This document shows positions 1,503 through 54,211 of a stretch of DNA of 64,000 nucleotides, piece after piece. Numbering within the stretch: the stretch's first letter is position 1; every line of letters begins with the position of its first letter. The translations under genes and the position numbers were made by a program. The stretch lies in assembly GCA_027078545.1 (NCBI GenBank), contig JALWXN010000004.1, positions 672,001-736,000 on the forward strand, given 5' to 3'. Source of the stretch: Nitrososphaeria archaeon (GTDB lineage: Archaea; Thermoproteota; Nitrososphaeria; Geothermarchaeales; JDFR-13). Below the pieces are notes generated by a model. It was not told where the DNA came from, searched no databases, and saw only the letters and a program-made list of their open reading frames with translations.

Positions 1503-2450
1503 ATGAGTATATGGATGCTCCGCCTGAGACTGCTACTAGCCACCACGGTATTCATAGCAATATCGACACTGGCCTTCACAATCATCCTAAGCGTTACGGG
1601 ACTCTTCAACCTATACCTCCTAGCACTATTCGTGATCCTCTTCAACCTACTCCAGTGGTTGATAGCCCCTAAGATAATCAATAGTATCTACCGTGTCCGG
1701 GAGCCTAGGCCGGGCGAGTCATGGCTGGTATCCGCTGTGGATGAGCTAAGCAGGAGGAGTGGGATAAAGACCCCCAAGGTCTACGTGGCTGAGGTGCCGA
1801 TACCTAATGCATTCGCCTATGGCAGCCCTCTTACTGGTAACATGGTGGCTGTCACGACTGGATTGCTGGAGACCCTTGATAGGGACGAGGTTGTGGCTGT
1901 CCTCGGACATGAGGTGGGGCATCTCAAGCATAGGGATGTCCAGCTCATGATGCTCCTATCGATACTCCCCTCGGTCCTATACTTCATAGGCTACTCCCTA
2001 TACTTCTCAAGCCTCTTCAACAGGGATAGGGGCGGCGCGTTACTACTCGTGGGACTCCTATCCATACTCCTCTACTACGTCCTAAGCCTGGTAGTCCTAT
2101 GGGTAAGTAGGATTAGGGAGTACTATGCCGATCTCCATGCGGCTCAGATAGTCGAGAATGGGAATATTAAGCTGGCCAATGCCCTGGTCAAGATCGTCTA
2201 TGGGACGACTAGGTATGTGGCTAGGGGAGGTGATGTACATAGGTTCAGCGCTGTGAAGCCCCTATTGATAGCTGATCCCGACACTGCTGTGGATGATCTC
2301 CGCGACCTTGCTAGGGAGGGAATCGTAGATAGGCGTGTCCTAGACCTGGCGAGGAGGAGGCTGAGCACTGGTGAGAGGATCATGGAGCTATTCTCGACCC
2401 ATCCACATATAGTGAACAGGATCAGGAGGCTCCTCAGCTACTCAAGGTAG
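1503..2450 (+). CDS. htpX: Zn metalloprotease HtpX (M48)
   Basis: PNAFAYG, HEVGH (HExxH), REYYAD, FSTHP; TM segments. Confidence 0.92.
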   Translation: MSIWMLRLRLLLATTVFIAISTLAFTIILSVTGLFNLYLLALFVILFNLLQWLIAPKIINSIYRVREPRPGESWLVSAVDELSRRSGIKTPKVYVAEVPIPNAFAYGSPLTGNMVAVTTGLLETLDRDEVVAVLGHEVGHLKHRDVQLMMLLSILPSVLYFIGYSLYFSSLFNRDRGGALLLVGLLSILLYYVLSLVVLWVSRIREYYADLHAAQIVENGNIKLANALVKIVYGTTRYVARGGDVHRFSAVKPLLIADPDTAVDDLRDLAREGIVDRRVLDLARRRLSTGERIMELFSTHPHIVNRIRRLLSYSR

Positions 2451-3778
2451 CTCCTCCTCTCCACCCACCTCTTTACCAATCCATTCCTCTCTAGGAACCT
2501 CCTGTAGCTGTATAGGCTCCTCAATACCTGTAGATATGCGTTGGGCGAGTAGGAGACAGGTATCCCCTGGCTGGGTAGTTTTAGGGAGGCCCTGAAGCTA
2601 TATCCATAGGGATAGGTAAGTATCGTGAGGGGCTTGACATGTCCCTGGCCCCACATCTCCCTCATGAGGCTCGAGACCATACCACCAAACTCGGTGGATA
2701 GGCTTGGGGATGGGTAGTAGGGTATAACAACGATAGCGTCGACGTCACCCCTCCTATAGAGCTCCTCGATCCTCCTCAGATACTCCTCGTCGCCAGCCGT
2801 GCCGCCCACATCTATGTATGCCGATATCTCCATATCCATAGCCCTAGCCCTGTTTAGCAGGGATATCCCGAAGCCACCTGCCCCTGTGACTATGCCTAGC
2901 CTGAGGCCCCTGGGTAGGGGCTGCTTCAAGACGTGTAGAGCCGCCTCACCCACCAGGTCTACGTCGTCGAGGAGTATGCCACCAGCCTGCCGGACAGCGG
3001 CCCTCAGAACCTCTCCACCCGCCAGCTGTCCGGTGTGGCTCTTTACGACTCCCCCGATACCCTTGTCCCCACCTACAACCACTAATACGGGCTTCTCGCC
3101 AGAGACGCGCCTTAGAACCTTGTAGAATTCACGGCCGTCTAGGACGCCCTCCACGTAAAGGGCTATCAGCTCCGTATCCGGGTCTCCATACAGCTCCGCA
3201 AGAACCTCCACGATCCCGACATCTATCTCCCGGCCTAGCCCCATGAATATGGAGACCCCCAGCCCAATCTCGGCCAGTATATCGAGTATCTGTGTACCCA
3301 CGGCTCCCGACTGGCTAACCACGGCTATAGAGCCTCTTCTCGGGTATCCCTGGCGGATCGGGTCTAGGAAGAGGGTGTTGAGGCCCCTGGAGGGCATGTA
3401 TATCCCTATGCTGCCAGGCCCCACTATACGCATTCCACTCCCACCAAGCACCTGTAGGAGTTGGTCGAGCTCCTCCCCAGATATCTGTGAGATCACTATG
3501 GAGATCTTCACACCCTTCGAGACCGCCTCTCCAACAACCCTGGGCACTGCATTCCCGGGGACAACGATGATGGCCATGTCTACTGGGTATGGGATGTCGA
3601 GGAGGCTCTTGTAGCACCTCATGCCTAGGATCTCCCTGGCTGATGGGTTGACGGGGTATATCCTGCCGCGGAAGCTCCTTATAAAGTTCCTTAGAATTAT
3701 GTGTCCAGGCTTGGAGGGGTCTCTAGACGCCCCCACAACGGCTACGCTCCTCACCCTCCTGATGGTCTCCAGCGGCAT
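2438..3778 (-). CDS. Acyl/acetate-CoA ligase (ADP-forming) alpha subunit
   Basis: CoA-binding VAVVGAS..P.KPG, YPVNP, SQSGA, phospho-His motif SHTGQLAG. Confidence 0.85.
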   Translation of the reverse strand: MPLETIRRVRSVAVVGASRDPSKPGHIILRNFIRSFRGRIYPVNPSAREILGMRCYKSLLDIPYPVDMAIIVVPGNAVPRVVGEAVSKGVKISIVISQISGEELDQLLQVLGGSGMRIVGPGSIGIYMPSRGLNTLFLDPIRQGYPRRGSIAVVSQSGAVGTQILDILAEIGLGVSIFMGLGREIDVGIVEVLAELYGDPDTELIALYVEGVLDGREFYKVLRRVSGEKPVLVVVGGDKGIGGVVKSHTGQLAGGEVLRAAVRQAGGILLDDVDLVGEAALHVLKQPLPRGLRLGIVTGAGGFGISLLNRARAMDMEISAYIDVGGTAGDEEYLRRIEELYRRGDVDAIVVIPYYPSPSLSTEFGGMVSSLMREMWGQGHVKPLTILTYPYGYSFRASLKLPSQGIPVSYSPNAYLQVLRSLYSYRRFLERNGLVKRWVERRSYLE

Positions 3779-3874
3779 TATAATGATGCTTTGGATATCG
3801 TGGATATAAAGGGTGGTGGAGGAGTATCCATCTAGTTATGGGATTACCTCGACCGGGTGGCTGGTGCATAGGCG

Positions 3875-9154: not shown

Positions 9155-9170
9155 CCCTAACCTCTTAGGG
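9155..9170. promoter_or_regulatory. Palindromic operator CCCTAA-cctc-TTAGGG upstream of nosZ
   Basis: Perfect 6-bp inverted repeat, extending to 9150-9175 with one mismatch; same motif recurs at 46434 and 50702. Confidence 0.65.
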
Positions 9171-9221: not shown

Positions 9222-11288
9222 ATGGCGGCTAGGAGGAGGGGCGCCGGTAAGGGCGTCTCGAGAAGGGACTTCATAACACTAGCTGGTGGGGCTGCTGTCG
9301 GAGCTGCTATTGGCTATACCGCCTTCAAGCTTACACAGCCAGCGCCTGCTGCTGAGCTACCCTACCAGGAGATCATCCAGGCACGTGGCCTAACCCCGGA
9401 GGATGTAGAGGCTGCGCTGAAGACCTACCTTCCTGGTGGGAGACAGGACGAGTTTATATTGTTTGCCAGCGGTGGACATTCGGGACAGGTGCTGGTCTTC
9501 GGAATACCCAGTATGAAGCTCTACAGAGTGATAGGTGTATTCACTCCAGAGCCTTGGCAGGGATATGGATACGGCGCAAAGGAGACTATGGAGGTTCTTA
9601 GGGGTGGCAACAATGGTGTGAGGGAGCTTACATGGGGCGATGTACACCACCCAGAGGTCAGCAGGACGAACGGCGAGTTCGATGGCGAGTGGCTATTCGT
9701 CAACGACAAGGCTAATGGGAGAGTAGCGGTGATAAGCCTGAAGGACTTCGAGACGAAGCAGATCGTGAAGATACCTAATATGCAGAGCCAGCATGGAGGT
9801 GCATTCGTTACTCCGAATACGGAGTACGTCGTCGTCGGTTCACAGTATCCGACTCCTTGGGATCCTGACAAGGGATATATTCCTGGGGAGACTTATGTAG
9901 AGCTGGATCCAAAGGATCCCGACACGCTAAAGAACAACTTCAGAGGGCTAATAGCATTTCTCAAGTTTGACAGAGAGCGTGGAAGGATCGATCTTAGCAG
10001 GAGCTTCGAGATTGAGCTTCCACCATATTCACAGGATCTAGTTGTGGTTGGCTGGGGGGCCTCAGATGGAATGGCTTTTATCAACAGCTTCAACACTGAG
10101 ATGGCGGTGGGTGATGTTCTTAATGGGGTTCCAGCATTGGAGGTAGGATCAGCAGAGTATGACTACGACTTCCTCCACATTGTATTCTGGAAGAAGGCTG
10201 AGCAGCTTATTCAGCAGGGAAGATATAGAGAGCTAAATGGAGTCAAGGTTATTAGTCTGGAGGATGCAGTGAGGGAAGGGATTCTCTACTTCGCCCCAGA
10301 GCCTAAGAGCCCACACGGTGTTGACATTGCTCCCAGAGGAGATTATATAGTTGTCAGTGGTAAGCTGGAGCCATCAGCCACGATTTATAGTGCTGATGCG
10401 ATAAAGAACGCTGTACAGGCTGGAGACTTCGAGGGTAGGGACGACTTCGGAGTGCCCATCCTGAAGTTTGACAAGGTTAAGGTGGCCCAGGTTGAGCTCG
10501 GCCTAGGGCCGCTGCACACAGAGTTCGACGACAAGGGCTATGCATATACTAGCCTCTTCATAGATAATGCGATAGCCAAGTGGACACTAGGCCCGCCATA
10601 CTTCGAGGGCGACGAGGCATGGAAGGTTGTGGACAAGGTGACTATACACTACAACATCGGCCACCTAGCGGCGCCTGAGAGTAACAGCCCATCCCCTAAG
10701 GGTAAGTACGTCGTGGCCCTCAACAAGTGGAGCATAGACAGGTTCCCAGTCCTAGGCCCATTGAAGCCGCAGAACTTCCAGCTTATAGACATAACTGGGG
10801 AGAAAATGAAGGTTCTCCTAGACTTCCCGATAGGCATCGGTGAGCCGCACTACGCCAAGATCATCGATATAAACAAGATCAAGGCACTAGAGGTCTATCC
10901 TCCTGGAACTGATCCACTGACATTTGAGCCGCATCCACACGCCATACAGCCTGGTGAGGAGAGGATTGAGAGGACCACGATTGATGGTAGGCCAGCTACA
11001 GTAGTCTACGGCACCTTGATCAGGAGTACAGTAACACCAGACTTTATCAGGGTTCGGCAGGGAGACTTGGTGAGAATGTATCTAACCAATGTCGAGACTA
11101 CGCCAGACGCTACCCACGGATTCTCGATATGTGAGTATAACATCAACGCTAGTATAGAGCCGGGCGAGACGGTGACGATAGAGTTCGTAGCTGATAAGCC
11201 AGGTGTTTATGCCTTCTACTGTACAGAGTTCTGTTCACCGCTCCACCTAGAGATGGCTGGCTGGCTAGTCATCGAGCCCAGGGGGTAG
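9222..11288 (+). CDS. nosZ: Nitrous-oxide reductase, clade II type, with Tat signal
   Basis: SRRDF Tat motif; clade II SGGHSGQ..G.PSM; CuZ His motifs DVHH, QHG, PHG, PLH, GH, EPH; CuA THGF...CTEFCSPLHLEM. Confidence 0.96.
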   Translation: MAARRRGAGKGVSRRDFITLAGGAAVGAAIGYTAFKLTQPAPAAELPYQEIIQARGLTPEDVEAALKTYLPGGRQDEFILFASGGHSGQVLVFGIPSMKLYRVIGVFTPEPWQGYGYGAKETMEVLRGGNNGVRELTWGDVHHPEVSRTNGEFDGEWLFVNDKANGRVAVISLKDFETKQIVKIPNMQSQHGGAFVTPNTEYVVVGSQYPTPWDPDKGYIPGETYVELDPKDPDTLKNNFRGLIAFLKFDRERGRIDLSRSFEIELPPYSQDLVVVGWGASDGMAFINSFNTEMAVGDVLNGVPALEVGSAEYDYDFLHIVFWKKAEQLIQQGRYRELNGVKVISLEDAVREGILYFAPEPKSPHGVDIAPRGDYIVVSGKLEPSATIYSADAIKNAVQAGDFEGRDDFGVPILKFDKVKVAQVELGLGPLHTEFDDKGYAYTSLFIDNAIAKWTLGPPYFEGDEAWKVVDKVTIHYNIGHLAAPESNSPSPKGKYVVALNKWSIDRFPVLGPLKPQNFQLIDITGEKMKVLLDFPIGIGEPHYAKIIDINKIKALEVYPPGTDPLTFEPHPHAIQPGEERIERTTIDGRPATVVYGTLIRSTVTPDFIRVRQGDLVRMYLTNVETTPDATHGFSICEYNINASIEPGETVTIEFVADKPGVYAFYCTEFCSPLHLEMAGWLVIEPRG

Positions 11289-11291
11289 AGG

Positions 11292-11798
11292 ATGAAGAAG
11301 TACCTTATCCCAATCCTTTTTATATTTGCCCTTATAGTCATTGGTCTAAACCTCTCCAACCTGTTTATGCGTGGGGAGTCGATCCCCAAGATATATCTGG
11401 ATCAGGACAGATGTGCCCAGTGTGGGATGGTGATTAGCAGGGCGGAGTACGCCGCCCTGGCATACAGGGTAGATACTGGGGAATGGGTGAAGTTCGACGA
11501 TATCGGATGCCTGCTTAAATATATGATCGAGAATGGTGGGACCTCCAACTTTCGCGACATATATGTGGCTGACTACAACACTGGTGAGTTGATAGGGGCT
11601 GTGGACGCATTCTTTGTCAGGGCCTCCGCCGAGGATGTATCCACCCCTATGTCAAGCGGAATAGTGGCGTTCAAATCCCTGGGTGATGCGGAGGCCTTCT
11701 CCAACAGGTATGGAGGCACGGTATACACCTTCCAGGAGCTATACTCCTGGGCCGCCTCCAACCCGGGCGTGATTTATCAGAAGGAGATGTCGATGTGA
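11292..11798 (+). CDS. nosL: NosL copper chaperone
   Basis: CAQCGM, FDDIGC, TPM; directly after nosZ. Confidence 0.9.
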   Translation: MKKYLIPILFIFALIVIGLNLSNLFMRGESIPKIYLDQDRCAQCGMVISRAEYAALAYRVDTGEWVKFDDIGCLLKYMIENGGTSNFRDIYVADYNTGELIGAVDAFFVRASAEDVSTPMSSGIVAFKSLGDAEAFSNRYGGTVYTFQELYSWAASNPGVIYQKEMSM

Positions 11799-11799
11799 G

Positions 11800-12360
11800 G
11801 TGGTCATATTGGATAGGATGATGATCCTCAAGATCGTGCTGGTCGTGGCGCCACTCATAGCTATAGCCCTCCCGCTTTGGAGCCTACGTGTACACCCAGC
11901 TTTCATGGGTCAGAAGTGGCTGGACATCGATGTATGGGGATATGGGGCTGTAACAGGACCTTTAGATAGTCTAAACATTGCAAACCACTATGTAGGGCTT
12001 AAAGAGATCAGGCCTGAGGAGATGTTCGAGCTGAAGTTGCTACCCCTTCTATATCCCTTGATGGCGGTAGTGAACGGGCTTATACTCTTCGGGGATGAGG
12101 CGAAGTATAGGGTTGGGAAGTGGCTCGGCCTAGCCACATTGATAGGTGTGGTTGCCTATTTCCAGTGGTGGCTATACAGATACGGACATGATATAGACCC
12201 TAAATTAGCTAGGATTGAGATAGACCCCTTCACACCGTATGTAACGGGCTACTACAAGATAGCCAACTTCGAGATCATAGCCTTCTTCAACATTGGCTAC
12301 ATCATCCTGCTCGTGAGCTACATCCTATCCCTCTACCTCAGGAGGAGGGAGTATGGGTGA
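11800..12360 (+). CDS. nosB: Clade II nos-associated 4-TM membrane protein (NosB-like)
   Basis: LNIANHYVG motif, WLYRYGH; lies inside the nos cluster. Confidence 0.7.
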   Translation: MVILDRMMILKIVLVVAPLIAIALPLWSLRVHPAFMGQKWLDIDVWGYGAVTGPLDSLNIANHYVGLKEIRPEEMFELKLLPLLYPLMAVVNGLILFGDEAKYRVGKWLGLATLIGVVAYFQWWLYRYGHDIDPKLARIEIDPFTPYVTGYYKIANFEIIAFFNIGYIILLVSYILSLYLRRREYG

Positions 12361-13781
12361 TGACCAACATCCAGAGAACCCTCTCCATCCCAATACTCCT
12401 TTTTATCGCCCTTATCCTTGCTCAGCCCGTAGACGGGTTGGTGGGTAACTCCTCCATATACGATGATCTCGGGAATAGATACTCCTCCCTCGGGGAGGCT
12501 GTGAGGGAGGCATCCCCAGGCTCAACAATATATGTCGAGGGTGGTATCCATAGAGGCGGTATAGTCATCGATAAACCCCTAAGCTTAGTAGGTATAGACA
12601 GGCCAGTTCTCGACGGTGAGTATAGTGGTAGCGTTGTCACTATAGAGAACACTGAAAATGTCTCGATAACAGGCTTCAGGATTGAGAGGAGTGGACGGGT
12701 ATACTCCACCGAGGACTCCGGGGTAAAGATCATCAACTCCACAAGAGTATTTATACGGTACAATGTGTTCGACGACGTCTTCTTCGGGATACTGGTCAAG
12801 GATAGTAGGGGTGTCGAGATAGTAGGGAATAATATTACTGGGATTGATGAGTACTATCTCTCCGACAGGATGCATGGTATCTACAACTGGTACTCCTACA
12901 ACATATCGATTATAAACAATACCTTCCGCTATGTGAAGGACGGGGTCTATAACGACCATAACTATGACACGGTCATTGCTAACAACACATTCCGCTACGG
13001 CCGCTACGGTGTACACCTGATGTATAGCGATAGGTTCGTGATAGAGCGGAATGATATCTCTGGCTTCATAGCAGGGATGGCCCTGATGTATAGTGAGAAT
13101 TTGACGATACGATATAACAAGATACATGGGAATAGGGTAGGTGGCATTGGTGAGGGCCTATTCATACCTGAGACCGACAACATATTGATCGAGCATAACT
13201 GGATAGTCGGGAATGTGGTGGGGATCAATATTAGGTATACTCCATATACGCCCGGCAAATACTCTATTATACGGTTCAACGTGATAGCCTACAACTATGT
13301 GGGGCTCCATGTAGATACTGATAGCGAGGCGGAGGTCTATGGGAACGACTTCATAGAGAATGTCCAGGAGATTAGGTATATCGGCTATACCAAGAGCAGG
13401 ATAAAGTGGTATAGCGAGGAGCTAAGGATAGGTAACTACTGGTCCGGGGTCAAGGCCTTCGACTCCGATGGAGACGGCCTTGTCGATGTGCCCTATACCC
13501 TGGTCGACCCGCTATACCGTTTTATAAGGGAGCACCGTGAGCTGAGCGTATACTACCTCAGCCCTGTCTACGAGGTCCTCGATATCGTGTTTAAATACTC
13601 GTATGAGAGCCCCCTCCAGGGCCTGATAGAGGATCCATACCCGTTGAGGGAGCCATACAATATTGATAGGCTAGACCTAACCATTTACATTGAGAACCTT
13701 CCATATACACTTGTGTTGACCCTGATACCCATGTATATCGTCTATAGAGGTGTATACCGTGCTAGAGGTAAGAGGGGTTAA
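12357..13781 (+). CDS. nosD: NosD beta-helix maturation protein
   Basis: Parallel beta-helix repeats, YGVHLMYS, GNYWS...D.DGDG..D.PY. Confidence 0.92.
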   Translation: MMTNIQRTLSIPILLFIALILAQPVDGLVGNSSIYDDLGNRYSSLGEAVREASPGSTIYVEGGIHRGGIVIDKPLSLVGIDRPVLDGEYSGSVVTIENTENVSITGFRIERSGRVYSTEDSGVKIINSTRVFIRYNVFDDVFFGILVKDSRGVEIVGNNITGIDEYYLSDRMHGIYNWYSYNISIINNTFRYVKDGVYNDHNYDTVIANNTFRYGRYGVHLMYSDRFVIERNDISGFIAGMALMYSENLTIRYNKIHGNRVGGIGEGLFIPETDNILIEHNWIVGNVVGINIRYTPYTPGKYSIIRFNVIAYNYVGLHVDTDSEAEVYGNDFIENVQEIRYIGYTKSRIKWYSEELRIGNYWSGVKAFDSDGDGLVDVPYTLVDPLYRFIREHRELSVYYLSPVYEVLDIVFKYSYESPLQGLIEDPYPLREPYNIDRLDLTIYIENLPYTLVLTLIPMYIVYRGVYRARGKRG

Positions 13782-14634
13782 CAAGTTTTTCGGGGATTAC
13801 CAGGTGTTGAAGGATATATCCTTCAGCCTCGGCCCTGGGGAGGCTGCTGTCCTCCTCGGGCGTAACGGGGCTGGGAAGACCACCCTCCTGAGATGTATAG
13901 CGGGTATCCTACGGTATGAGGGGGAGGTCCTTGTCGAGGGTATAGACATGGCTAGGGAGCCTATAGAGGCTAAGAAGAGGATCGGCTACCTCCCCCAGGT
14001 CCCCCCTGTCAGGAGCGACGTCACAGGGTATGAGCTCTTCAACATGTATACCGAGCTACACGGGATAGACCTCGACGCCGATGAATGGTTTGAGAGGTTC
14101 GCCCTCCACGACGCGATGGATTTATATATCGACGAGTATAGCGGGGGTATGAGGCAGAGGCTCTTCCTAATGATGACGATAGCCCACGACCCCAGCCTGG
14201 TTCTCATGGACGAGCCTATGAACAACCTGGACAGCCTGGGTAAGAAGCTCCTAATCGACATAATCAACGAGATGAAGGGGCGTGGCAAGAGCTTCCTAAT
14301 AAGTGTCCACAGGGTCTCAGACTTCATAGCATATGCCGATGAGATCCTCGTGGTGGATGATGGGAGGCTCCTCTTCAAGGGCCCGGTCACCCGCCTATTC
14401 GAGGGCCTAGGGATATCCCGTATATTCATCTACGCCCCGGACGGGCTTGAGAGGAGGATGGTTGAGGAGGTAGGTGGGGAGAGGATAGGAGAGAATAGAG
14501 TAGTTGTCGAGGCGGAGAATATCCATGAGACCGTTATCCGCCTCGTCGAGATGGGCGTGAGGAGCTTCTTCATCGAGGAGCCAGGTATCGACGTGATTAT
14601 CAGGAGGCTGAGGAGGGATGAGGACGGTCTATAG
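13750..14634 (+). CDS. nosF: NosF ABC ATPase
   Basis: GRNGAGKT, YSGGMRQR, DEP; between nosD and nosY. Confidence 0.88.
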   Translation: MYTVLEVRGVNKFFGDYQVLKDISFSLGPGEAAVLLGRNGAGKTTLLRCIAGILRYEGEVLVEGIDMAREPIEAKKRIGYLPQVPPVRSDVTGYELFNMYTELHGIDLDADEWFERFALHDAMDLYIDEYSGGMRQRLFLMMTIAHDPSLVLMDEPMNNLDSLGKKLLIDIINEMKGRGKSFLISVHRVSDFIAYADEILVVDDGRLLFKGPVTRLFEGLGISRIFIYAPDGLERRMVEEVGGERIGENRVVVEAENIHETVIRLVEMGVRSFFIEEPGIDVIIRRLRRDEDGL

Positions 14635-15442
14635 CCTGGCCCGTGAAGAGTTTCTGAGCGGGCTTAGGAATAGATGGATACTTGTATACTCACTCTCATA
14701 CCTACTCCTGGCGATAGCCATATCACCCTTCTCCCTGGCAGGGCTCAACATCCTGGGTATGAAGGCGGTTGGCAAGGTCCTATCCGCATTGATAAATATA
14801 TCGCTATACCTAGTCCCCCTAATATCCCTGATAACCTCGACGGTCGCTATAGTGGGGGATAGGGAGACGAGATATCTTGAGTGGCTAATGTCCAACCCAG
14901 TCTCCGAGAGGGCCTACCTACTCGGCAAGTTTATAGGTCTCTTCCTATCGATAACTGTGGCCACCCTCCTAGGCTTCGGGGTTGCAAGCTGGTTCGTCAT
15001 CCTATTCCTACCGCCGGAGGACGTGTCTAAATACTTCCTCCTAATCTCTGTCGCCCTACTACTATCAGCGGTATACGTGGCTATGGGGCTACTGATAAGC
15101 GTCCTGAGCAGGACACGCTACCACGCACTGGGCACAGGCTTCCTCATATGGTTCTTCACAGTCTTCGTCTTCGACCTATTCGTGATGAGCTTCCTACTAA
15201 GCCTCCTAAACGACCCACTACTCGCCTCCATAGCCGCTACACTCAACCCGATACAGGGTATAAGGCTCAACATGATCTCCGTCATAGATCCCGAGATGAC
15301 CTTCCTAGGCTTCACAGGGATAGGTGAGCTGAGGGAGAATGTATGGCTCGTACTAGGGACTTCGCAGGCGGTGGTGATCGGCTACACAATCCTATTCGCA
15401 GGATTGGCATATCTACAGCTGAGGAGGCAGGACGTGATATAG
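14618..15442 (+). CDS. nosY: NosY ABC permease
   Basis: LRNRW, YLVPLI, LLGKF.G, LNP; 6 TM. Confidence 0.88.
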   Translation: MRTVYSLAREEFLSGLRNRWILVYSLSYLLLAIAISPFSLAGLNILGMKAVGKVLSALINISLYLVPLISLITSTVAIVGDRETRYLEWLMSNPVSERAYLLGKFIGLFLSITVATLLGFGVASWFVILFLPPEDVSKYFLLISVALLLSAVYVAMGLLISVLSRTRYHALGTGFLIWFFTVFVFDLFVMSFLLSLLNDPLLASIAATLNPIQGIRLNMISVIDPEMTFLGFTGIGELRENVWLVLGTSQAVVIGYTILFAGLAYLQLRRQDVI

Positions 15443-46433: not shown

Positions 46434-46449
46434 TCCTAAGTAATTAGGG
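46434..46449. promoter_or_regulatory. Palindromic operator TCCTAA-gtaa-TTAGGG
   Basis: Same motif as upstream of nosZ; 65 nt before the CuA-protein ATG. Confidence 0.62.
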
Positions 46450-46514: not shown

Positions 46515-47111
46515 ATGGATCAGAAGGTTATTGCCGGTGTAGCGATCGTCATACTCATAGCTGCCATCGCGGGATACTTCATGATGAGTAGCCCCGCCGG
46601 TGAAACAGGCGGGGGTGAGGCTGGTGAGGAGACATACATAGTTATCGGCTACTACTGGGGCTTCAAGATATACGACTCCAACTACAACCCTGTGGACAAG
46701 ATCATGGTTAAGAAGGGAACGACCCTAAAGATAATATTCCTCAACGCCAGATCCTTCGCCGAGGACTTCTATGGCCCACTGGAGGAGGAGAGTAAGCAGA
46801 AAGGCGTAGGTGGCCTCGACAACGGGCCATTGGAGCAGAAGATCATGGAGGCTTTGGAGACTAACTTGGTTGACCATGGCCTACAGATAATTGGATATGG
46901 CGTGAGTGTAGCTACGAACTATAAGGCTTTCAGCGGAACTGCCAAGACACTCCAGGAGTTCTTCCAGAACGAGCCTCAGGACGCTATTAACCAGCACACA
47001 GTAGTCTTCAAGGCCGATAAGACGGGTGTATTCGACTTCGTCTGCTACGTCGTCTGTGGCTATGGCCACTCCTTCATGAGCCTAAAGGGCGCTCTCCAGG
47101 TGTACGAGTAG
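46515..47111 (+). CDS. Membrane-anchored stand-alone CuA-type cupredoxin
   Basis: N-terminal TM; YWGF strand; DHG and C-x3-C-x3-H-x2-M (CYVVCGYGHSFM). Confidence 0.8.
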   Translation: MDQKVIAGVAIVILIAAIAGYFMMSSPAGETGGGEAGEETYIVIGYYWGFKIYDSNYNPVDKIMVKKGTTLKIIFLNARSFAEDFYGPLEEESKQKGVGGLDNGPLEQKIMEALETNLVDHGLQIIGYGVSVATNYKAFSGTAKTLQEFFQNEPQDAINQHTVVFKADKTGVFDFVCYVVCGYGHSFMSLKGALQVYE

Positions 47112-50701: not shown

Positions 50702-50717
50702 TCCAAAGGTCTTAGGG
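50702..50717. promoter_or_regulatory. Operator variant TCCAAA-ggtc-TTAGGG upstream of the heme-copper operon
   Basis: One mismatch to the CCTAA-N4-TTAGG core; 52 nt before ATG, versus 51 nt at nosZ. Confidence 0.55.
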
Positions 50718-50769: not shown

Positions 50770-51330
50770 ATGGAGGTCCAATGGGCCGTCGAGATGTTCT
50801 ACTACAGCCTCATAACGACCTACACCATAGTCATCCTACTATTCATCTACAAGACCCGTAAACCCCCCAAGATATCGACCGACGGCGGAGTCCACCAGGG
50901 GATGGATAGGCGGGAGAAGATATGGATGTACAGCCTGATAACAGTGGCAATAATAGGCAACATAATCTTCTTTAGTCCACTCATACCATCGATGCAGTAC
51001 AACATCTACCTTGACGAGGAGCCTGTGAAGACAATCGTGATAAGGATGGAGGACCATAGATTCATCCTGCCTGAGGAGCCTATAGTCATACCCCTGGGCG
51101 AGCCTGTGGAGTTCAAGGTGTATAGCGAGGATCTTACCTATGGCTTCGGGGTCTTCAGGGAGGATGGTATGCTAGTCTTCCAGATGCAGGTCGTGCCCGG
51201 CTATGAGAATAGGCTGGTCTGGATATTCACCGAGCCTGGCAACTACACGATCAGGAGTACTGAGTACAGTGGGCCGGAGCATCCCTACATGTATATCGAG
51301 GACGCGATAGTCGTGGAGGAGGTGGGTTAG
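50770..51330 (+). CDS. Heme-copper superfamily subunit II lacking CuA ligands (gNOR-type)
   Basis: 2 TM plus cupredoxin; DLTYGF replaces DV.HGF; STEYSGPEH replaces CxExCG.GH. Confidence 0.8.
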   Translation: MEVQWAVEMFYYSLITTYTIVILLFIYKTRKPPKISTDGGVHQGMDRREKIWMYSLITVAIIGNIIFFSPLIPSMQYNIYLDEEPVKTIVIRMEDHRFILPEEPIVIPLGEPVEFKVYSEDLTYGFGVFREDGMLVFQMQVVPGYENRLVWIFTEPGNYTIRSTEYSGPEHPYMYIEDAIVVEEVG

Positions 51331-51331
51331 C

Positions 51332-52864
51332 ATGGGGCCTAGGGAGAAGCTAGCCCTTAAATACGTCTTGGCAGGGGTCTTCTGGCTAGGCGTCGCAGGT
51401 ATAGAGGGCATATTAATGAGGCTCAGGATACTTAACCTCCTCACCGAGATCTATACACCTGAGCATTACTACGCCATGATGACTGTCCACCCCTTTGTAG
51501 GCATATATGGCTGGGCCTACATGGCCGTCATGGGTGCCTTCTACTACCTAGTCCCGGTCGTGCTTAAGAAGGATCTCTATAGTGAGTGGGTCGCCAACCT
51601 GGCCTGGTATGTGATGATGGCCGGTGTATTGATAACCTGGCTCTCAGGCTTCCTATTCAGCTATAGCCCCCTATACACGCTCTACTGGCCCCTACCAGTC
51701 GTTGAGTATAACGGTATCCAGCAGATAGTCTTCGGCTTCGGCAGCGCACTCATCTTCATCTCCGTACTCATGTTCTTCTTCAACATGTTCGCCACGATCT
51801 TCCTCCCCCAGAGGGGCGCGGGTGGAGCTGGCTACGTGGCTAAGGAGCTCCTCACACTCGCCTTCAACCTTGATAAGCTGAAGGCTAAGACGAAGGGTAT
51901 TAAGGAGTATCTACCAAGGGTGAATAACTACCCAGTCTTCGTAGTGGGCGTCTTCAGGGGCTGTGTAGACACCACTCTTAACGCTATTGTCCTACTACTA
52001 GTATCCCTCACGATAGGTGTCTATGGGATAACGGAGGTTCTGGGCAACGAGCTGAGCCCCAGCCTTATAGACCCGCTTATCTATAAGAACGTCTTCTGGT
52101 GGGGCCTCGACCTCATAGCGGATGGCAACGTCCTCATCTTCACAGCGGCAACCTGGTACTTCCTGGTCCCACTACTTACTAACCAGCCACTATTCGGGGA
52201 GAACGTGGTTAGGAGCGTGATCCTGGCCGACCTCGTGATAAGCCTCTTCGTCTGGAACCACCACATGATGAGTGATACTCCACAGCCACTATTCCTACTC
52301 GTCCAGGGCCAGATATTCACATGGGGTGAGTTGATAACCATGGGGCTAACCATGTTCGCCGTGCTGATGACGATCTGGAGGGCTAGGCCGGTAGAGTATA
52401 GCCCAGCCCTACTGGCGATAGTCCTCTCGATCCTCGGCTACGCCATGGGTGGCTCGGCAGGTATGATACAGGCCAACATAGCTATGAACAGGTATTTCCA
52501 CAATACCCAGTGGGTCATAGGTATACATGGCCATATCCAGCTACTGGCTGGTCTTAGCCTAACGATCTTCGCGGCGATCTACGCACTAGCCCCGATCCTC
52601 ACTGGTAAGGAGATGGATAGGAGGCTGTCATACCTACACATTGTCCTCTTCTTCGTGGGGGCTGTGGTGATGGGTCTGAGTCAGGGAGCGGCTGGGGCCG
52701 CTGGTATGCTTAGGAGGACGCTGTACTTCAACGGTGAGTACGCTGGATACATGACTGTTGCCGCCATCGGGTCCTTCCTAATGGCGGTAGGCTTCCTAAT
52801 ATTCCTATACAACTTCGTCAAGACCTACGGCTTCAAGAGTGTGATAGAGGTTCTAAAGCCATAG
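51332..52864 (+). CDS. Heme-copper superfamily subunit I, putative gNOR-type nitric-oxide reductase
   Basis: About 12 TM; MTVH, WNHH, IHGH ligands kept; helix VI reads FWWGLDLIADG instead of FW..GHP.VY. Confidence 0.75.
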   Translation: MGPREKLALKYVLAGVFWLGVAGIEGILMRLRILNLLTEIYTPEHYYAMMTVHPFVGIYGWAYMAVMGAFYYLVPVVLKKDLYSEWVANLAWYVMMAGVLITWLSGFLFSYSPLYTLYWPLPVVEYNGIQQIVFGFGSALIFISVLMFFFNMFATIFLPQRGAGGAGYVAKELLTLAFNLDKLKAKTKGIKEYLPRVNNYPVFVVGVFRGCVDTTLNAIVLLLVSLTIGVYGITEVLGNELSPSLIDPLIYKNVFWWGLDLIADGNVLIFTAATWYFLVPLLTNQPLFGENVVRSVILADLVISLFVWNHHMMSDTPQPLFLLVQGQIFTWGELITMGLTMFAVLMTIWRARPVEYSPALLAIVLSILGYAMGGSAGMIQANIAMNRYFHNTQWVIGIHGHIQLLAGLSLTIFAAIYALAPILTGKEMDRRLSYLHIVLFFVGAVVMGLSQGAAGAAGMLRRTLYFNGEYAGYMTVAAIGSFLMAVGFLIFLYNFVKTYGFKSVIEVLKP

Positions 52865-52955: not shown

Positions 52956-53555
52956 GTGATGAGTATATCCGAGGTCTCGATAGATATTGCTAGGAGCAGG
53001 TGTAGGCTCTACAGGAAGTATGGGAGCCGTATAAAGATCCTGTCGATCACGAATAATGGGGAGCGTATCATCCACCTCGTCACATGTCCAAAGGACCTGG
53101 TGGGTAATATCAGGGATGAGGAGGATCTCAAGGTACTGGGTCTAAACCTCGTCGATAACGAGGCGAGTGTATGGTGCCTATCCAGGGGCTGCGATGTATG
53201 TAAGCCGCTTGTGGATGAGGGCTGTATAATCCTGGATGGCTATATAGGGCAGGACGGCTCGATGAACATAACCTTCCTATCCCCCAGCGACAAGACTACT
53301 GAGAAGATCTTCAGGATCTATAGGGAGCTGGGTATCGAGTATGAGGTGAGGTATACGAGGAGGTATGGGAAGAGTAGGATACTGACCGATAGGCAGGAGC
53401 AGGTCCTATACCTGGCGTATAAAATGGGGTTCTTCGACTTCCCCAGGAAGACCTCGCTGAAGGAGCTGAGTGAGATACTGGGTATTAAGGAGGCGACCCT
53501 CAGCGAGATCCTGAGGAGGGGTGTGAAGAAGGTTATCCAGGAATACTTCAAATAG
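52956..53555 (+). CDS. Bat/NarO/DmsR-like HTH_10 transcriptional regulator with Cys-rich N-domain
   Basis: LTDRQ..L..AY.MGFFDFPR..L.EL...LGI...TLSE.LRR; six Cys in the N-terminal half. Confidence 0.85.
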   Translation: MMSISEVSIDIARSRCRLYRKYGSRIKILSITNNGERIIHLVTCPKDLVGNIRDEEDLKVLGLNLVDNEASVWCLSRGCDVCKPLVDEGCIILDGYIGQDGSMNITFLSPSDKTTEKIFRIYRELGIEYEVRYTRRYGKSRILTDRQEQVLYLAYKMGFFDFPRKTSLKELSEILGIKEATLSEILRRGVKKVIQEYFK

Positions 53556-53653: not shown

Positions 53654-54211
53654 ATGAGCCGGGGAGATGGGCTTAGGTATGGACTCCTAGCCAGCATAGC
53701 AGCCTTCATAATTATCGAGTACCTCTTGATACAGGTCTTCCTATACGGTGTCTACACCCCCTATGCCTGGCCAAACATAATACTCATCTCGAGCCTCATA
53801 CCCATAGGGCTTGTAGCCTATATAGGCTATCTATCCTGGCTGGTTGAGGGTAGGGATGTGTTTAAATACGCCAGTGCACTGGCCCTCCTGCTTGGCTCGG
53901 CCTCCATCGCCACTGGCTATATGGGGGAGCCGGTATCCCTATACCTCCTCTTCACCGCATACTTCACCGAGGTTGTCGTCGGGCCCTTCCTCATGAGGGG
54001 GTTCGAGACCTATGACTGGCTAGGTGCCAGGCTCTTCCTGGTCGGTATCATGGGCTTCGTCCTCAGCCTCCCACTGGTCTCACTGGCGAACGAGTTTGCC
54101 CTTGTACCCTTCGCCGCCAACCTGTTGAAGGGATATGGACTCATAAGGATCTATCTAAAGGCTGTTGAGAAGCCTATACCTGTTGAGGAGGCGGTCGAGG
54201 CGGTTGCCTAG
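53654..54211 (+). CDS. Hypothetical multi-TM membrane protein
   Basis: About 6 hydrophobic segments; host-like codon usage. Confidence 0.7.
   Translation: MSRGDGLRYGLLASIAAFIIIEYLLIQVFLYGVYTPYAWPNIILISSLIPIGLVAYIGYLSWLVEGRDVFKYASALALLLGSASIATGYMGEPVSLYLLFTAYFTEVVVGPFLMRGFETYDWLGARLFLVGIMGFVLSLPLVSLANEFALVPFAANLLKGYGLIRIYLKAVEKPIPVEEAVEAVA

Follow-up and report, generated by a model that had tools for sequence, protein, structure and literature searches.

We examined a 64,000-nucleotide stretch of genomic DNA from a Nitrososphaeria archaeon (GenBank assembly GCA_027078545.1, contig JALWXN010000004.1, positions 672,001–736,000; hereafter 'the window') and describe from it a two-gene operon that, judged by its sequence, is a member of gNOR, an already published family of heme-copper enzymes with representatives in Archaea and a presumed role in nitric oxide (NO) reduction. 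The first gene encodes subunit II (P0001, 186 amino acids; positions 50770–51330, forward strand) and the second the catalytic subunit I (P0002, 510 amino acids; 51332–52864, forward strand). Both were called as open reading frames (ORFs), both frames are intact, and the co-directional genes are separated by a stop-to-start spacing of one base. P0002 matches the Pfam family COX1 over its full length (221 bits), and P0001 matches COX2 weakly (25 bits). At the level of curated families, P0002 falls far under all NCBIfam oxidase cut-offs (e.g. 131 bits versus the CtaD cut-off of 671), and the same profile comparison gave no match to the NorB-type family. An AlphaFold2 model, for which 42 homologues served as input, is confident (predicted local distance difference test [pLDDT] 87, predicted template-modelling score [pTM] 0.89), and in it subunit I adopts the fold of the 12-helix oxidases. 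A Foldseek search with this model returned subunit I chains at TM scores of about 0.8, A-type chains being topmost; it thus recovered only the generic oxidase fold and, being uninformative on family, was set aside for placement.

What distinguishes P0002 is its helix VI, in which residues 255–265 read FWWGLDLIADG. In a gapless HMMER alignment to the caa3 oxidase of Thermus thermophilus (PDB 2yev), FWWGLDLIAD stands opposite FWFYSHPTVY, such that D260 occupies the position of the CuB-ligating His and D264 that of the Tyr. When B- and A-family oxidases are aligned with P0002 by L-INS-i, the same two pairings emerge, with a one-residue insertion after D264; in a pairwise alignment to aa3-600 (6kob), a one-residue gap places L259 and A263 at the His and Tyr positions instead. 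Whichever alignment is preferred, helix VI has neither the His nor the Tyr. The replacement is not peculiar to this archaeon: the motif W256-W257-G-L-D260-x-[IV]-A-D264-G is invariant in all 117 full-length homologues that we compared (46–97% identity, at least seven phyla). The five other canonical His residues, i.e. the low-spin heme ligands H53 and H401, the high-spin heme ligand H399, and the helix VII pair of metal ligands H310 and H311, are present in P0002 and are invariant or nearly so among the homologues.

On these alignments, the former CuB site would now be composed of H310, H311, D260, and D264, with the invariant E333 one helix away, on helix VIII, one turn below the universally conserved Thr of that helix (T330). 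Helix VIII as a whole displays an invariant polar stripe of T330, E333, T336, T340 (Thr or Ser), and T347, in which T340 is found at the Lys/Thr position of the K-type proton path. Near the N-terminus, E25 (invariant in the homologues) and H45 (present in 87 of the 117) align with D74 and H94 of aa3-600, the menaquinol oxidase of Bacillus subtilis, two residues of the quinol site of aa3-600 and bo3 enzymes; the other two quinol-site positions of aa3-600 are occupied in P0002 by V21 and A48.

Subunit II is predicted to have two N-terminal transmembrane helices followed by a cupredoxin domain. At the CuA positions, P0001 has Y124 for the first His and S163 and S167 for both Cys residues, whereas H171 and M174 are retained; the CuA set of B-family O2 reductases is therefore incomplete in P0001. 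Tyr, Ser, and Ser are found at these positions in 59 of 60 family members, and the stretch R-S-T-E-Y-S-G-P is essentially invariant across the family. Also nearly invariant is E49, which lies where the second helix starts on the cytoplasmic side, at the place of the entrance Glu residues of K-type paths. Of 73 related loci, 57 have subunit II directly before subunit I. The original prediction, which was made from the DNA and its translated ORFs, had read both the metal-ligand His of helix VI and the cross-linked Tyr as Asp, the other five His ligands as kept, and Ser for both CuA Cys with Tyr for one His; the residues listed above agree with it at each of these positions. The one exception among the 60 members, from a metagenome-assembled genome (MAG) of Thermofilaceae, has His, Cys, and Cys at the three positions. 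Its subunit II (locus positions 1713–2285) carries the complete CuA set (H, C, C, H, M), and its subunit I (2295–3827), which is 66% identical, matches in a scan with the [FY]WWGLD motif; the genome encodes NirS, and the gNOR-like gene is its sole heme-copper enzyme. The locus would represent a gNOR that bears CuA or else a reversion.

The family to which P0002 belongs is large and sharply bounded. A scan with one genome per species found relatives with the motif [FY]WWGLD[ML][IV] in at least 586 species genomes, and in a library clustered at 50% identity, full-length representatives extend to an E-value of 1e-106 with fragments below, the next full-length outsider appearing at 6.5e-26 and 27% identity. 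We built a maximum-likelihood tree from 56 sequences (LG+G4, quick search), and in it those with the D...D motif form a monophyletic clade (SH-aLRT 100, stem length 0.82). This clade is split with a support of 100 from the A-family clade (HPEVY motifs) and, on the non-A side of the tree, is placed among GHP[VI]VY sequences. The sister pair of the clade is weakly supported (87) and includes a sequence (P0185) that matches T. thermophilus ba3 at E 1.7e-83; the best match of a sequence in a neighbouring clade (P0151) is likewise ba3. Sequences with H...N and H...E motifs, which resemble sNOR and eNOR, fall outside the D...D clade. The check by family profiles and phylogeny that had been proposed alongside the original prediction puts P0002 in the D...D clade, which lies beside ba3-type O2 reductases, and below the curated oxidase cut-offs. 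Within this clade, bacterial sequences from Methylomirabilota and Terriglobales (P0053, P0066, and P0082) are nested in the archaeal part, next to those of Nitrososphaerota and Caldarchaeales (P0035, P0038, and P0056), a topology that suggests transfer from Archaea to Bacteria.

The assignment to gNOR follows from the agreement of these features (Asp in place of the His on helix VI, loss of the Tyr, a cupredoxin subunit devoid of CuA, and B-family affinity) with the published hallmarks. Murali et al. (2024; PMC11214002) described gNOR as the first heme-copper family in which an active-site His is replaced, by Asp, with a cupredoxin subunit lacking the CuA residues, possible quinol-binding residues, B-family ancestry, and an occurrence in both Bacteria and Archaea with a preference for sulfidic habitats; of the families treated there, only eNOR was assayed. 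In a table of PMC8756737, the Y of O2 reductases is replaced in gNOR by D, and Sulfurimonas, Sulfurovum, and Persephonella are named; Hemp and Gennis (2008) and Sievert et al. (2008) are cited in that paper for the family. According to the same table, sNOR/bNOR and eNOR keep three His residues and have Asn and Gln, respectively, at the Tyr position; P0002, with D260 and D264, has the helix VI residues of neither. Nor does it align as a cNOR or qNOR, as its partner is a cupredoxin, no NorB-type match is found, and its helix VI motif differs; and the three-His CuB site with His-Tyr cofactor that characterizes B-family O2 reductases is missing from it. A preprint (10.1101/592808) attributes to gNOR a His-to-Glu change of a heme ligand; this change is not found in P0002, where H53, H399, and H401 are present. 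The gNOR of 'M. oxyfera' corresponds to Damo_1118-1119. The tree was built without Damo_1118 and the Sulfurimonas and Persephonella reference gNORs; no entry named M. oxyfera occurred in our cluster-member listing or in a homologue search with a Methylomirabilota sequence. Members of the clade do, however, include Campylobacterales (L083) and Methylomirabilota (P0082), i.e. taxa in which gNOR was first named. The gNOR-type identity put forward in the original prediction is thereby upheld, but its view of a family found mainly in sulfur-oxidizing bacteria needs qualifying: the family is not confined to sulfur oxidizers and is commonest in Anaerolineae and several archaeal lineages.

The operon shares its window with other nitrogen-oxide genes. 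A nos cluster identified by profile matches (9222–15442, forward strand) comprises a clade II nosZ, nosL, an unassigned ORF, nosD, nosF, and nosY; its NosZ (9222–11288), the enzyme named in the original prediction as consumer of the N2O, matches TIGR04246, the profile of Sec-type clade II enzymes, at 769 bits. Despite the Sec-type clade II score, a twin-arginine motif (SRRDF) is present at the N-terminus of this NosZ, which also gives a weak match to a twin-arginine translocation (TAT) signal. Between the cluster and the operon, a gene at 46515–47111 (forward strand) encodes a membrane-anchored cupredoxin with a full CuA set (H121, C177-x3-C181-x3-H185-x2-M188). This stand-alone CuA protein is conserved in Geothermarchaeota, and all five of its CuA ligands are kept in five homologues. 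Its homologue is divergent from nosZ in one related genome (G011), and in JdFR-13 (G015) it lies at about the expected end of the nos cluster, by arithmetic from the length of the cluster in the window. Because of this proximity to nos genes in both genomes, the CuA protein is more probably a partner of NosZ, and it is a candidate electron donor to that enzyme, whose cluster shows no donor gene. A complex prediction for both gNOR subunits with the soluble domain of the CuA protein scored 0.02, which speaks neither for nor against binding.

A common upstream element makes the CuA gene a candidate member of the same regulon as nosZ and the operon. The palindrome CCTAA-N4-TTAGG occurs exactly twice in the 1.24-Mb genome, as CCTAACCTCTTAGG (9156–9169), 52 nt before nosZ, and as CCTAAGTAATTAGG (46435–46448), 66 nt before the CuA gene. 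A version with one mismatch, CCAAAGGTCTTAGG (50703–50716), precedes the subunit II start by 53 nt, within the intergenic region between the divergent marC and gNOR genes; it is truly intergenic because the MarC domain starts well downstream of the annotated TTG start of the divergent gene. All three palindromes abut an AT-rich, TATA-like stretch (CCAAAGGTCTTAGG being just upstream of its own), a position at which an archaeal activator would be expected to bind. (A scan for sigma-70 promoters and terminators is not meaningful for archaeal sequence.) One-mismatch sites also stand at the equivalent gNOR position in four related loci (L004, L014, L018, and L005), in the last three at 629–638 nt before the subunit I start, and the genome G011 has a one-mismatch palindrome 56 nt before nosZ. 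Two further one-mismatch sites, 67–72 nt upstream of C4:206636–207121 (family unknown) and C4:845920–846639 (an ATP-binding cassette ATPase), were considered and rejected, as neither gene has a link to nitrogen oxides.

The probable binder of the palindrome is encoded by the first gene after the operon (52956–53555, forward strand), a short HTH_10 regulator of the Bat/NarO/DmsR type. Its C16, H40, and a C-x2-C pair (C79 and C82) are conserved in most aligned homologues, and 13 further archaeal loci have an HTH_10 homologue beside gNOR. There is a precedent among haloarchaea, where the nir, nor, and nos promoters of Haloferax mediterranei share a functional semi-palindrome 66–79 nt upstream (PMC10062603). 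Other arrangements also occur. In a Caldarchaeales/Nitrososphaeria locus (L009:520–6337) and three similar ones, HTH_10 and the gNOR II-I pair are embedded in the conserved string of ribosomal protein genes Spt5/NusG-L11-L1...L10, between L1 and L10; in five loci of Anaerolineae and other Chloroflexota (L050, L067, L056, L065, and L076), a different recurrent motif, CCGAAGTAATTTGG, and variants of it lie at a constant distance of about 82 nt upstream of subunit II, in a phylum of which other loci have Crp/Fnr-type regulators on the flanks of the operon. In the window, the regulator is followed by an ORF (53654–54211) of 185 amino acids with several predicted membrane helices; it matches no family, and its position beside gNOR is not conserved in the related loci.

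The genome that hosts these genes, which belongs to a hot-vent archaeon, was assembled to 1.24 Mb and is 92% complete. The closest relative is a Candidatus Geothermarchaeota MAG (L004; 98% identity, same synteny), and other Geothermarchaeota are 69–78% identical. The host, described in the original prediction as crenarchaeon-like, is thus indeed an archaeon of the Thermoproteati/TACK group, but one resembling Geothermarchaeota and not a classical crenarchaeon. Genome-wide, PF00115 matches only gNOR subunit I and one A-type oxidase; because there are no others, the gNOR pair is, by this profile, the only candidate NO reductase of the genome. The A-type oxidase lies outside the window (C4:303000–311000) and is encoded by a 777-amino acid open frame in which subunits I and III are fused.

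Taking these observations together, we consider the best explanation, with a probability of roughly 0.55, to be that the operon encodes a gNOR that couples NO to nitrous oxide (N2O) and that is co-switched with NosZ and the CuA protein through the palindrome. In such a scheme, the carboxylate-rich site would hold a non-heme iron, as does the His/Glu-rich FeB site of cNOR, iron suiting these ligands better than copper, and this iron together with the high-spin heme would couple two NO molecules to N2O. Four-electron reduction of O2 would not be expected, because the redox-active Tyr that supplies the fourth electron is gone. Membrane quinol would be the likeliest electron donor, because CuA has been lost from subunit II; electrons may enter near E25 and H45, at the quinol-site-like positions. 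The adjacent Cys-bearing HTH_10 regulator would bind CCTAA-N4-TTAGG and switch on the operon along with the clade II NosZ and the stand-alone CuA protein, and the outcome would be an NO → N2O → N2 module fed by NO from neighbouring cells or from chemistry.

A number of points weigh against this explanation. The NO assignment of all gNORs rests on active-site logic and gene context, and what is proposed here on the nature of the metal, on the parts played by D264 and E333, and on a quinol site has been read from alignments. One-mismatch palindromes occur three times in the window, where 2.6 would be expected, and 32 times in the genome, mostly inside genes; and the motif is not clearly retained before nosZ or the CuA gene in JdFR-13. 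NirK, NirS, and NarG were not found in the 92%-complete genome, which thus has no evident internal NO source, and the NO would need an extracellular or chemical origin. The earlier proposal that the enzyme makes the N2O consumed by NosZ keeps its plausibility through the common upstream palindrome, with the NO supplied from outside or by chemistry. Finally, in a survey of 50 genomes that carry a gNOR-like gene (MAGs of unknown completeness), NosZ was found in five, a NirK-like protein in about five, and NirS in two, and the gNOR-like gene was the sole heme-copper enzyme (PF00115) in roughly two-thirds. A respiratory link to NosZ is therefore not a trait of the family and appears specific to Geothermarchaeota and a few others.

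These counts bear most directly on a second explanation, namely that gNOR serves only to detoxify NO without feeding NosZ, the palindrome then marking a general low-oxygen or stress regulon. Because most carriers are without nir and nos, the usual job of the family would arguably be NO scavenging or detoxification rather than classical denitrification; most carriers come, moreover, from lineages of anaerobe type (Anaerolineae, Bathyarchaeia, Caldarchaeales, and Methanomethylicia), with the gNOR-like enzyme as their sole heme-copper enzyme. Gene context points in a similar direction. When the ORFs of 80 related loci were clustered, about half of 15 loci, drawn from at least five bacterial and archaeal phyla, had a hemerythrin-domain protein at a distance of one to two genes downstream, and the nearest curated families of these proteins, below cut-off, are RIC/YtfE/DnrN, which are nitrosative-stress proteins; this gene, the commonest gNOR neighbour elsewhere, was not found in the host genome. 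The lack of a detectable nitrite reductase in the host also favours detoxification. Against it stand the sharing of a rare palindrome, at the same distance, by the nosZ, CuA, and gNOR promoters of this lineage, and the presence of NosZ in three of the four Geothermarchaeota relatives tested. For the operon in the window, we regard detoxification alone as rather unlikely.

A third explanation, which we judge decidedly unlikely, is that the NOR-resembling heme/non-heme-metal site acts on a substrate other than NO, such as trace O2, peroxide, or another small oxidant. Members of the family are widespread as sole heme-copper enzymes in strictly anaerobic lineages devoid of nir, for which O2 scavenging would make sense too, and the helix VIII polar stripe together with E49 of subunit II is compatible with an energy-conserving reductase. 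Within the superfamily, however, O2 reduction is held to require the His-Tyr cofactor (PMC11214002), both residues of which are gone here, and the family's neighbours indicate nitrogen oxides: besides the hemerythrin proteins, Crp/Fnr regulators flank the operon in nine loci, and NirK is encoded about 9 kb upstream of gNOR in one (L024). (UbiA-type prenyltransferases, in eight loci, complete the list of recurrent neighbours.) The hemerythrin and Crp/Fnr neighbours fit a role in nitrogen-oxide metabolism. A reading of the operon as what decay has left of a B-type oxidase, without catalytic function, might be suggested by the loss of the Tyr and of three metal ligands (a CuB His and both CuA Cys) but is highly improbable given the invariance of the replacement residues across 117 homologues and at least seven phyla, the retention of all heme ligands, two intact frames, a confident model, and a II-I pair kept in most related loci.

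The explanation of a gNOR co-switched with NosZ can be extended, tentatively, to a regulon of Geothermarchaeales in which gNOR, clade II NosZ, and the CuA protein, governed by a Cys/His-bearing HTH_10 sensor on CCTAA-N4-TTAGG, would carry out a truncated NO → N2O → N2 respiration on NO and N2O supplied by neighbours or by hot-fluid chemistry, and in which gNOR may have kept an energy-conserving K-type path. By alignment, this proton path may run from E49 of subunit II to T340, T336, and E333 of helix VIII. If it does, the NO step would conserve energy, contrary to PMC8756737, where gNOR is listed, with reference to Hemp and Gennis (2008), as being without a proton channel.

In public records the homologues go by the names 'cbb3-type cytochrome c oxidase subunit I' or 'cytochrome c oxidase subunit 1', just as the original prediction had foreseen for this gene. 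With gNOR annotated everywhere as cytochrome c oxidase, capacity for NO reduction and N2O production would be missed in genome surveys. In one study of Caldarchaeales (PMC10547907), for instance, nirK was reported, but 'no nitric oxide reductase'; the gNOR family is present in other genomes of Caldarchaeales that we searched. Conversely, the carrier-genome counts caution against using gNOR as a marker of denitrification. Whereas gNOR itself was already known, this instance adds a candidate regulon with NosZ, a genome in which searches for nitrite reductases found none, and a neat system from a thermophile: a compact operon beside a candidate regulator, a candidate site, and NosZ would make a reasonable first biochemical and structural target for the family.

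Among known systems, the closest is published gNOR itself, which the operon resembles in its Asp for the active-site His, D at the Tyr position, CuA-less cupredoxin, B-family kinship, possible quinol-site residues, and membership of a family spread over Bacteria and Archaea and often found in sulfidic or hydrothermal settings. There is no defining difference; lineage-specific are the HTH_10 regulator, the palindrome in common with nosZ, and a genome in which no nitrite reductase was found. On the regulatory side, the haloarchaeal NarO and DmsR proteins (PMC10062603; PMC11218638) are likewise short HTH_10 proteins, without PAS or GAF domains, encoded beside anaerobic-respiration genes, and the Haloferax nir/nor/nos semi-palindrome also has a 4-nt spacer and a position about 50–80 nt upstream of the nor and nos starts. 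Its half-sites, however, are CGAA/TYG rather than CCTAA/TTAGG, it belongs to another phylum, and binding in the present case is predicted.

The B-family ba3 oxidase of T. thermophilus (PDB 1xme and 1ehk) shares with P0002 the 12-helix subunit I, the heme ligands, the helix VII HH pair, and the II-I gene order. In ba3 numbering, the K-path residues Y248 and T312 have kept equivalents in Y276 and T340, whereas those of S309, Y244, and T315 are M337, A272, and A343. The archaeal enzyme further differs in having Asp for the CuB His, Asp for the Tyr, and no CuA, and in the two N-terminal helices predicted for P0001, compared with one in ba3 subunit II. With cNOR and qNOR (NorB, e.g. cNOR of Pseudomonas aeruginosa), it would share its likely chemistry, 2 NO → N2O at a heme/non-heme-metal site, and it has conserved carboxylates on helices VI and VIII, where D260, D264, and E333 may be compared with E211, E215, and E280 of cNOR. 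The latter enzymes belong to the C-family branch, with three His and a Glu at the metal site and, in place of a cupredoxin, either an N-terminal domain fused to the enzyme or a subunit of cytochrome c type.

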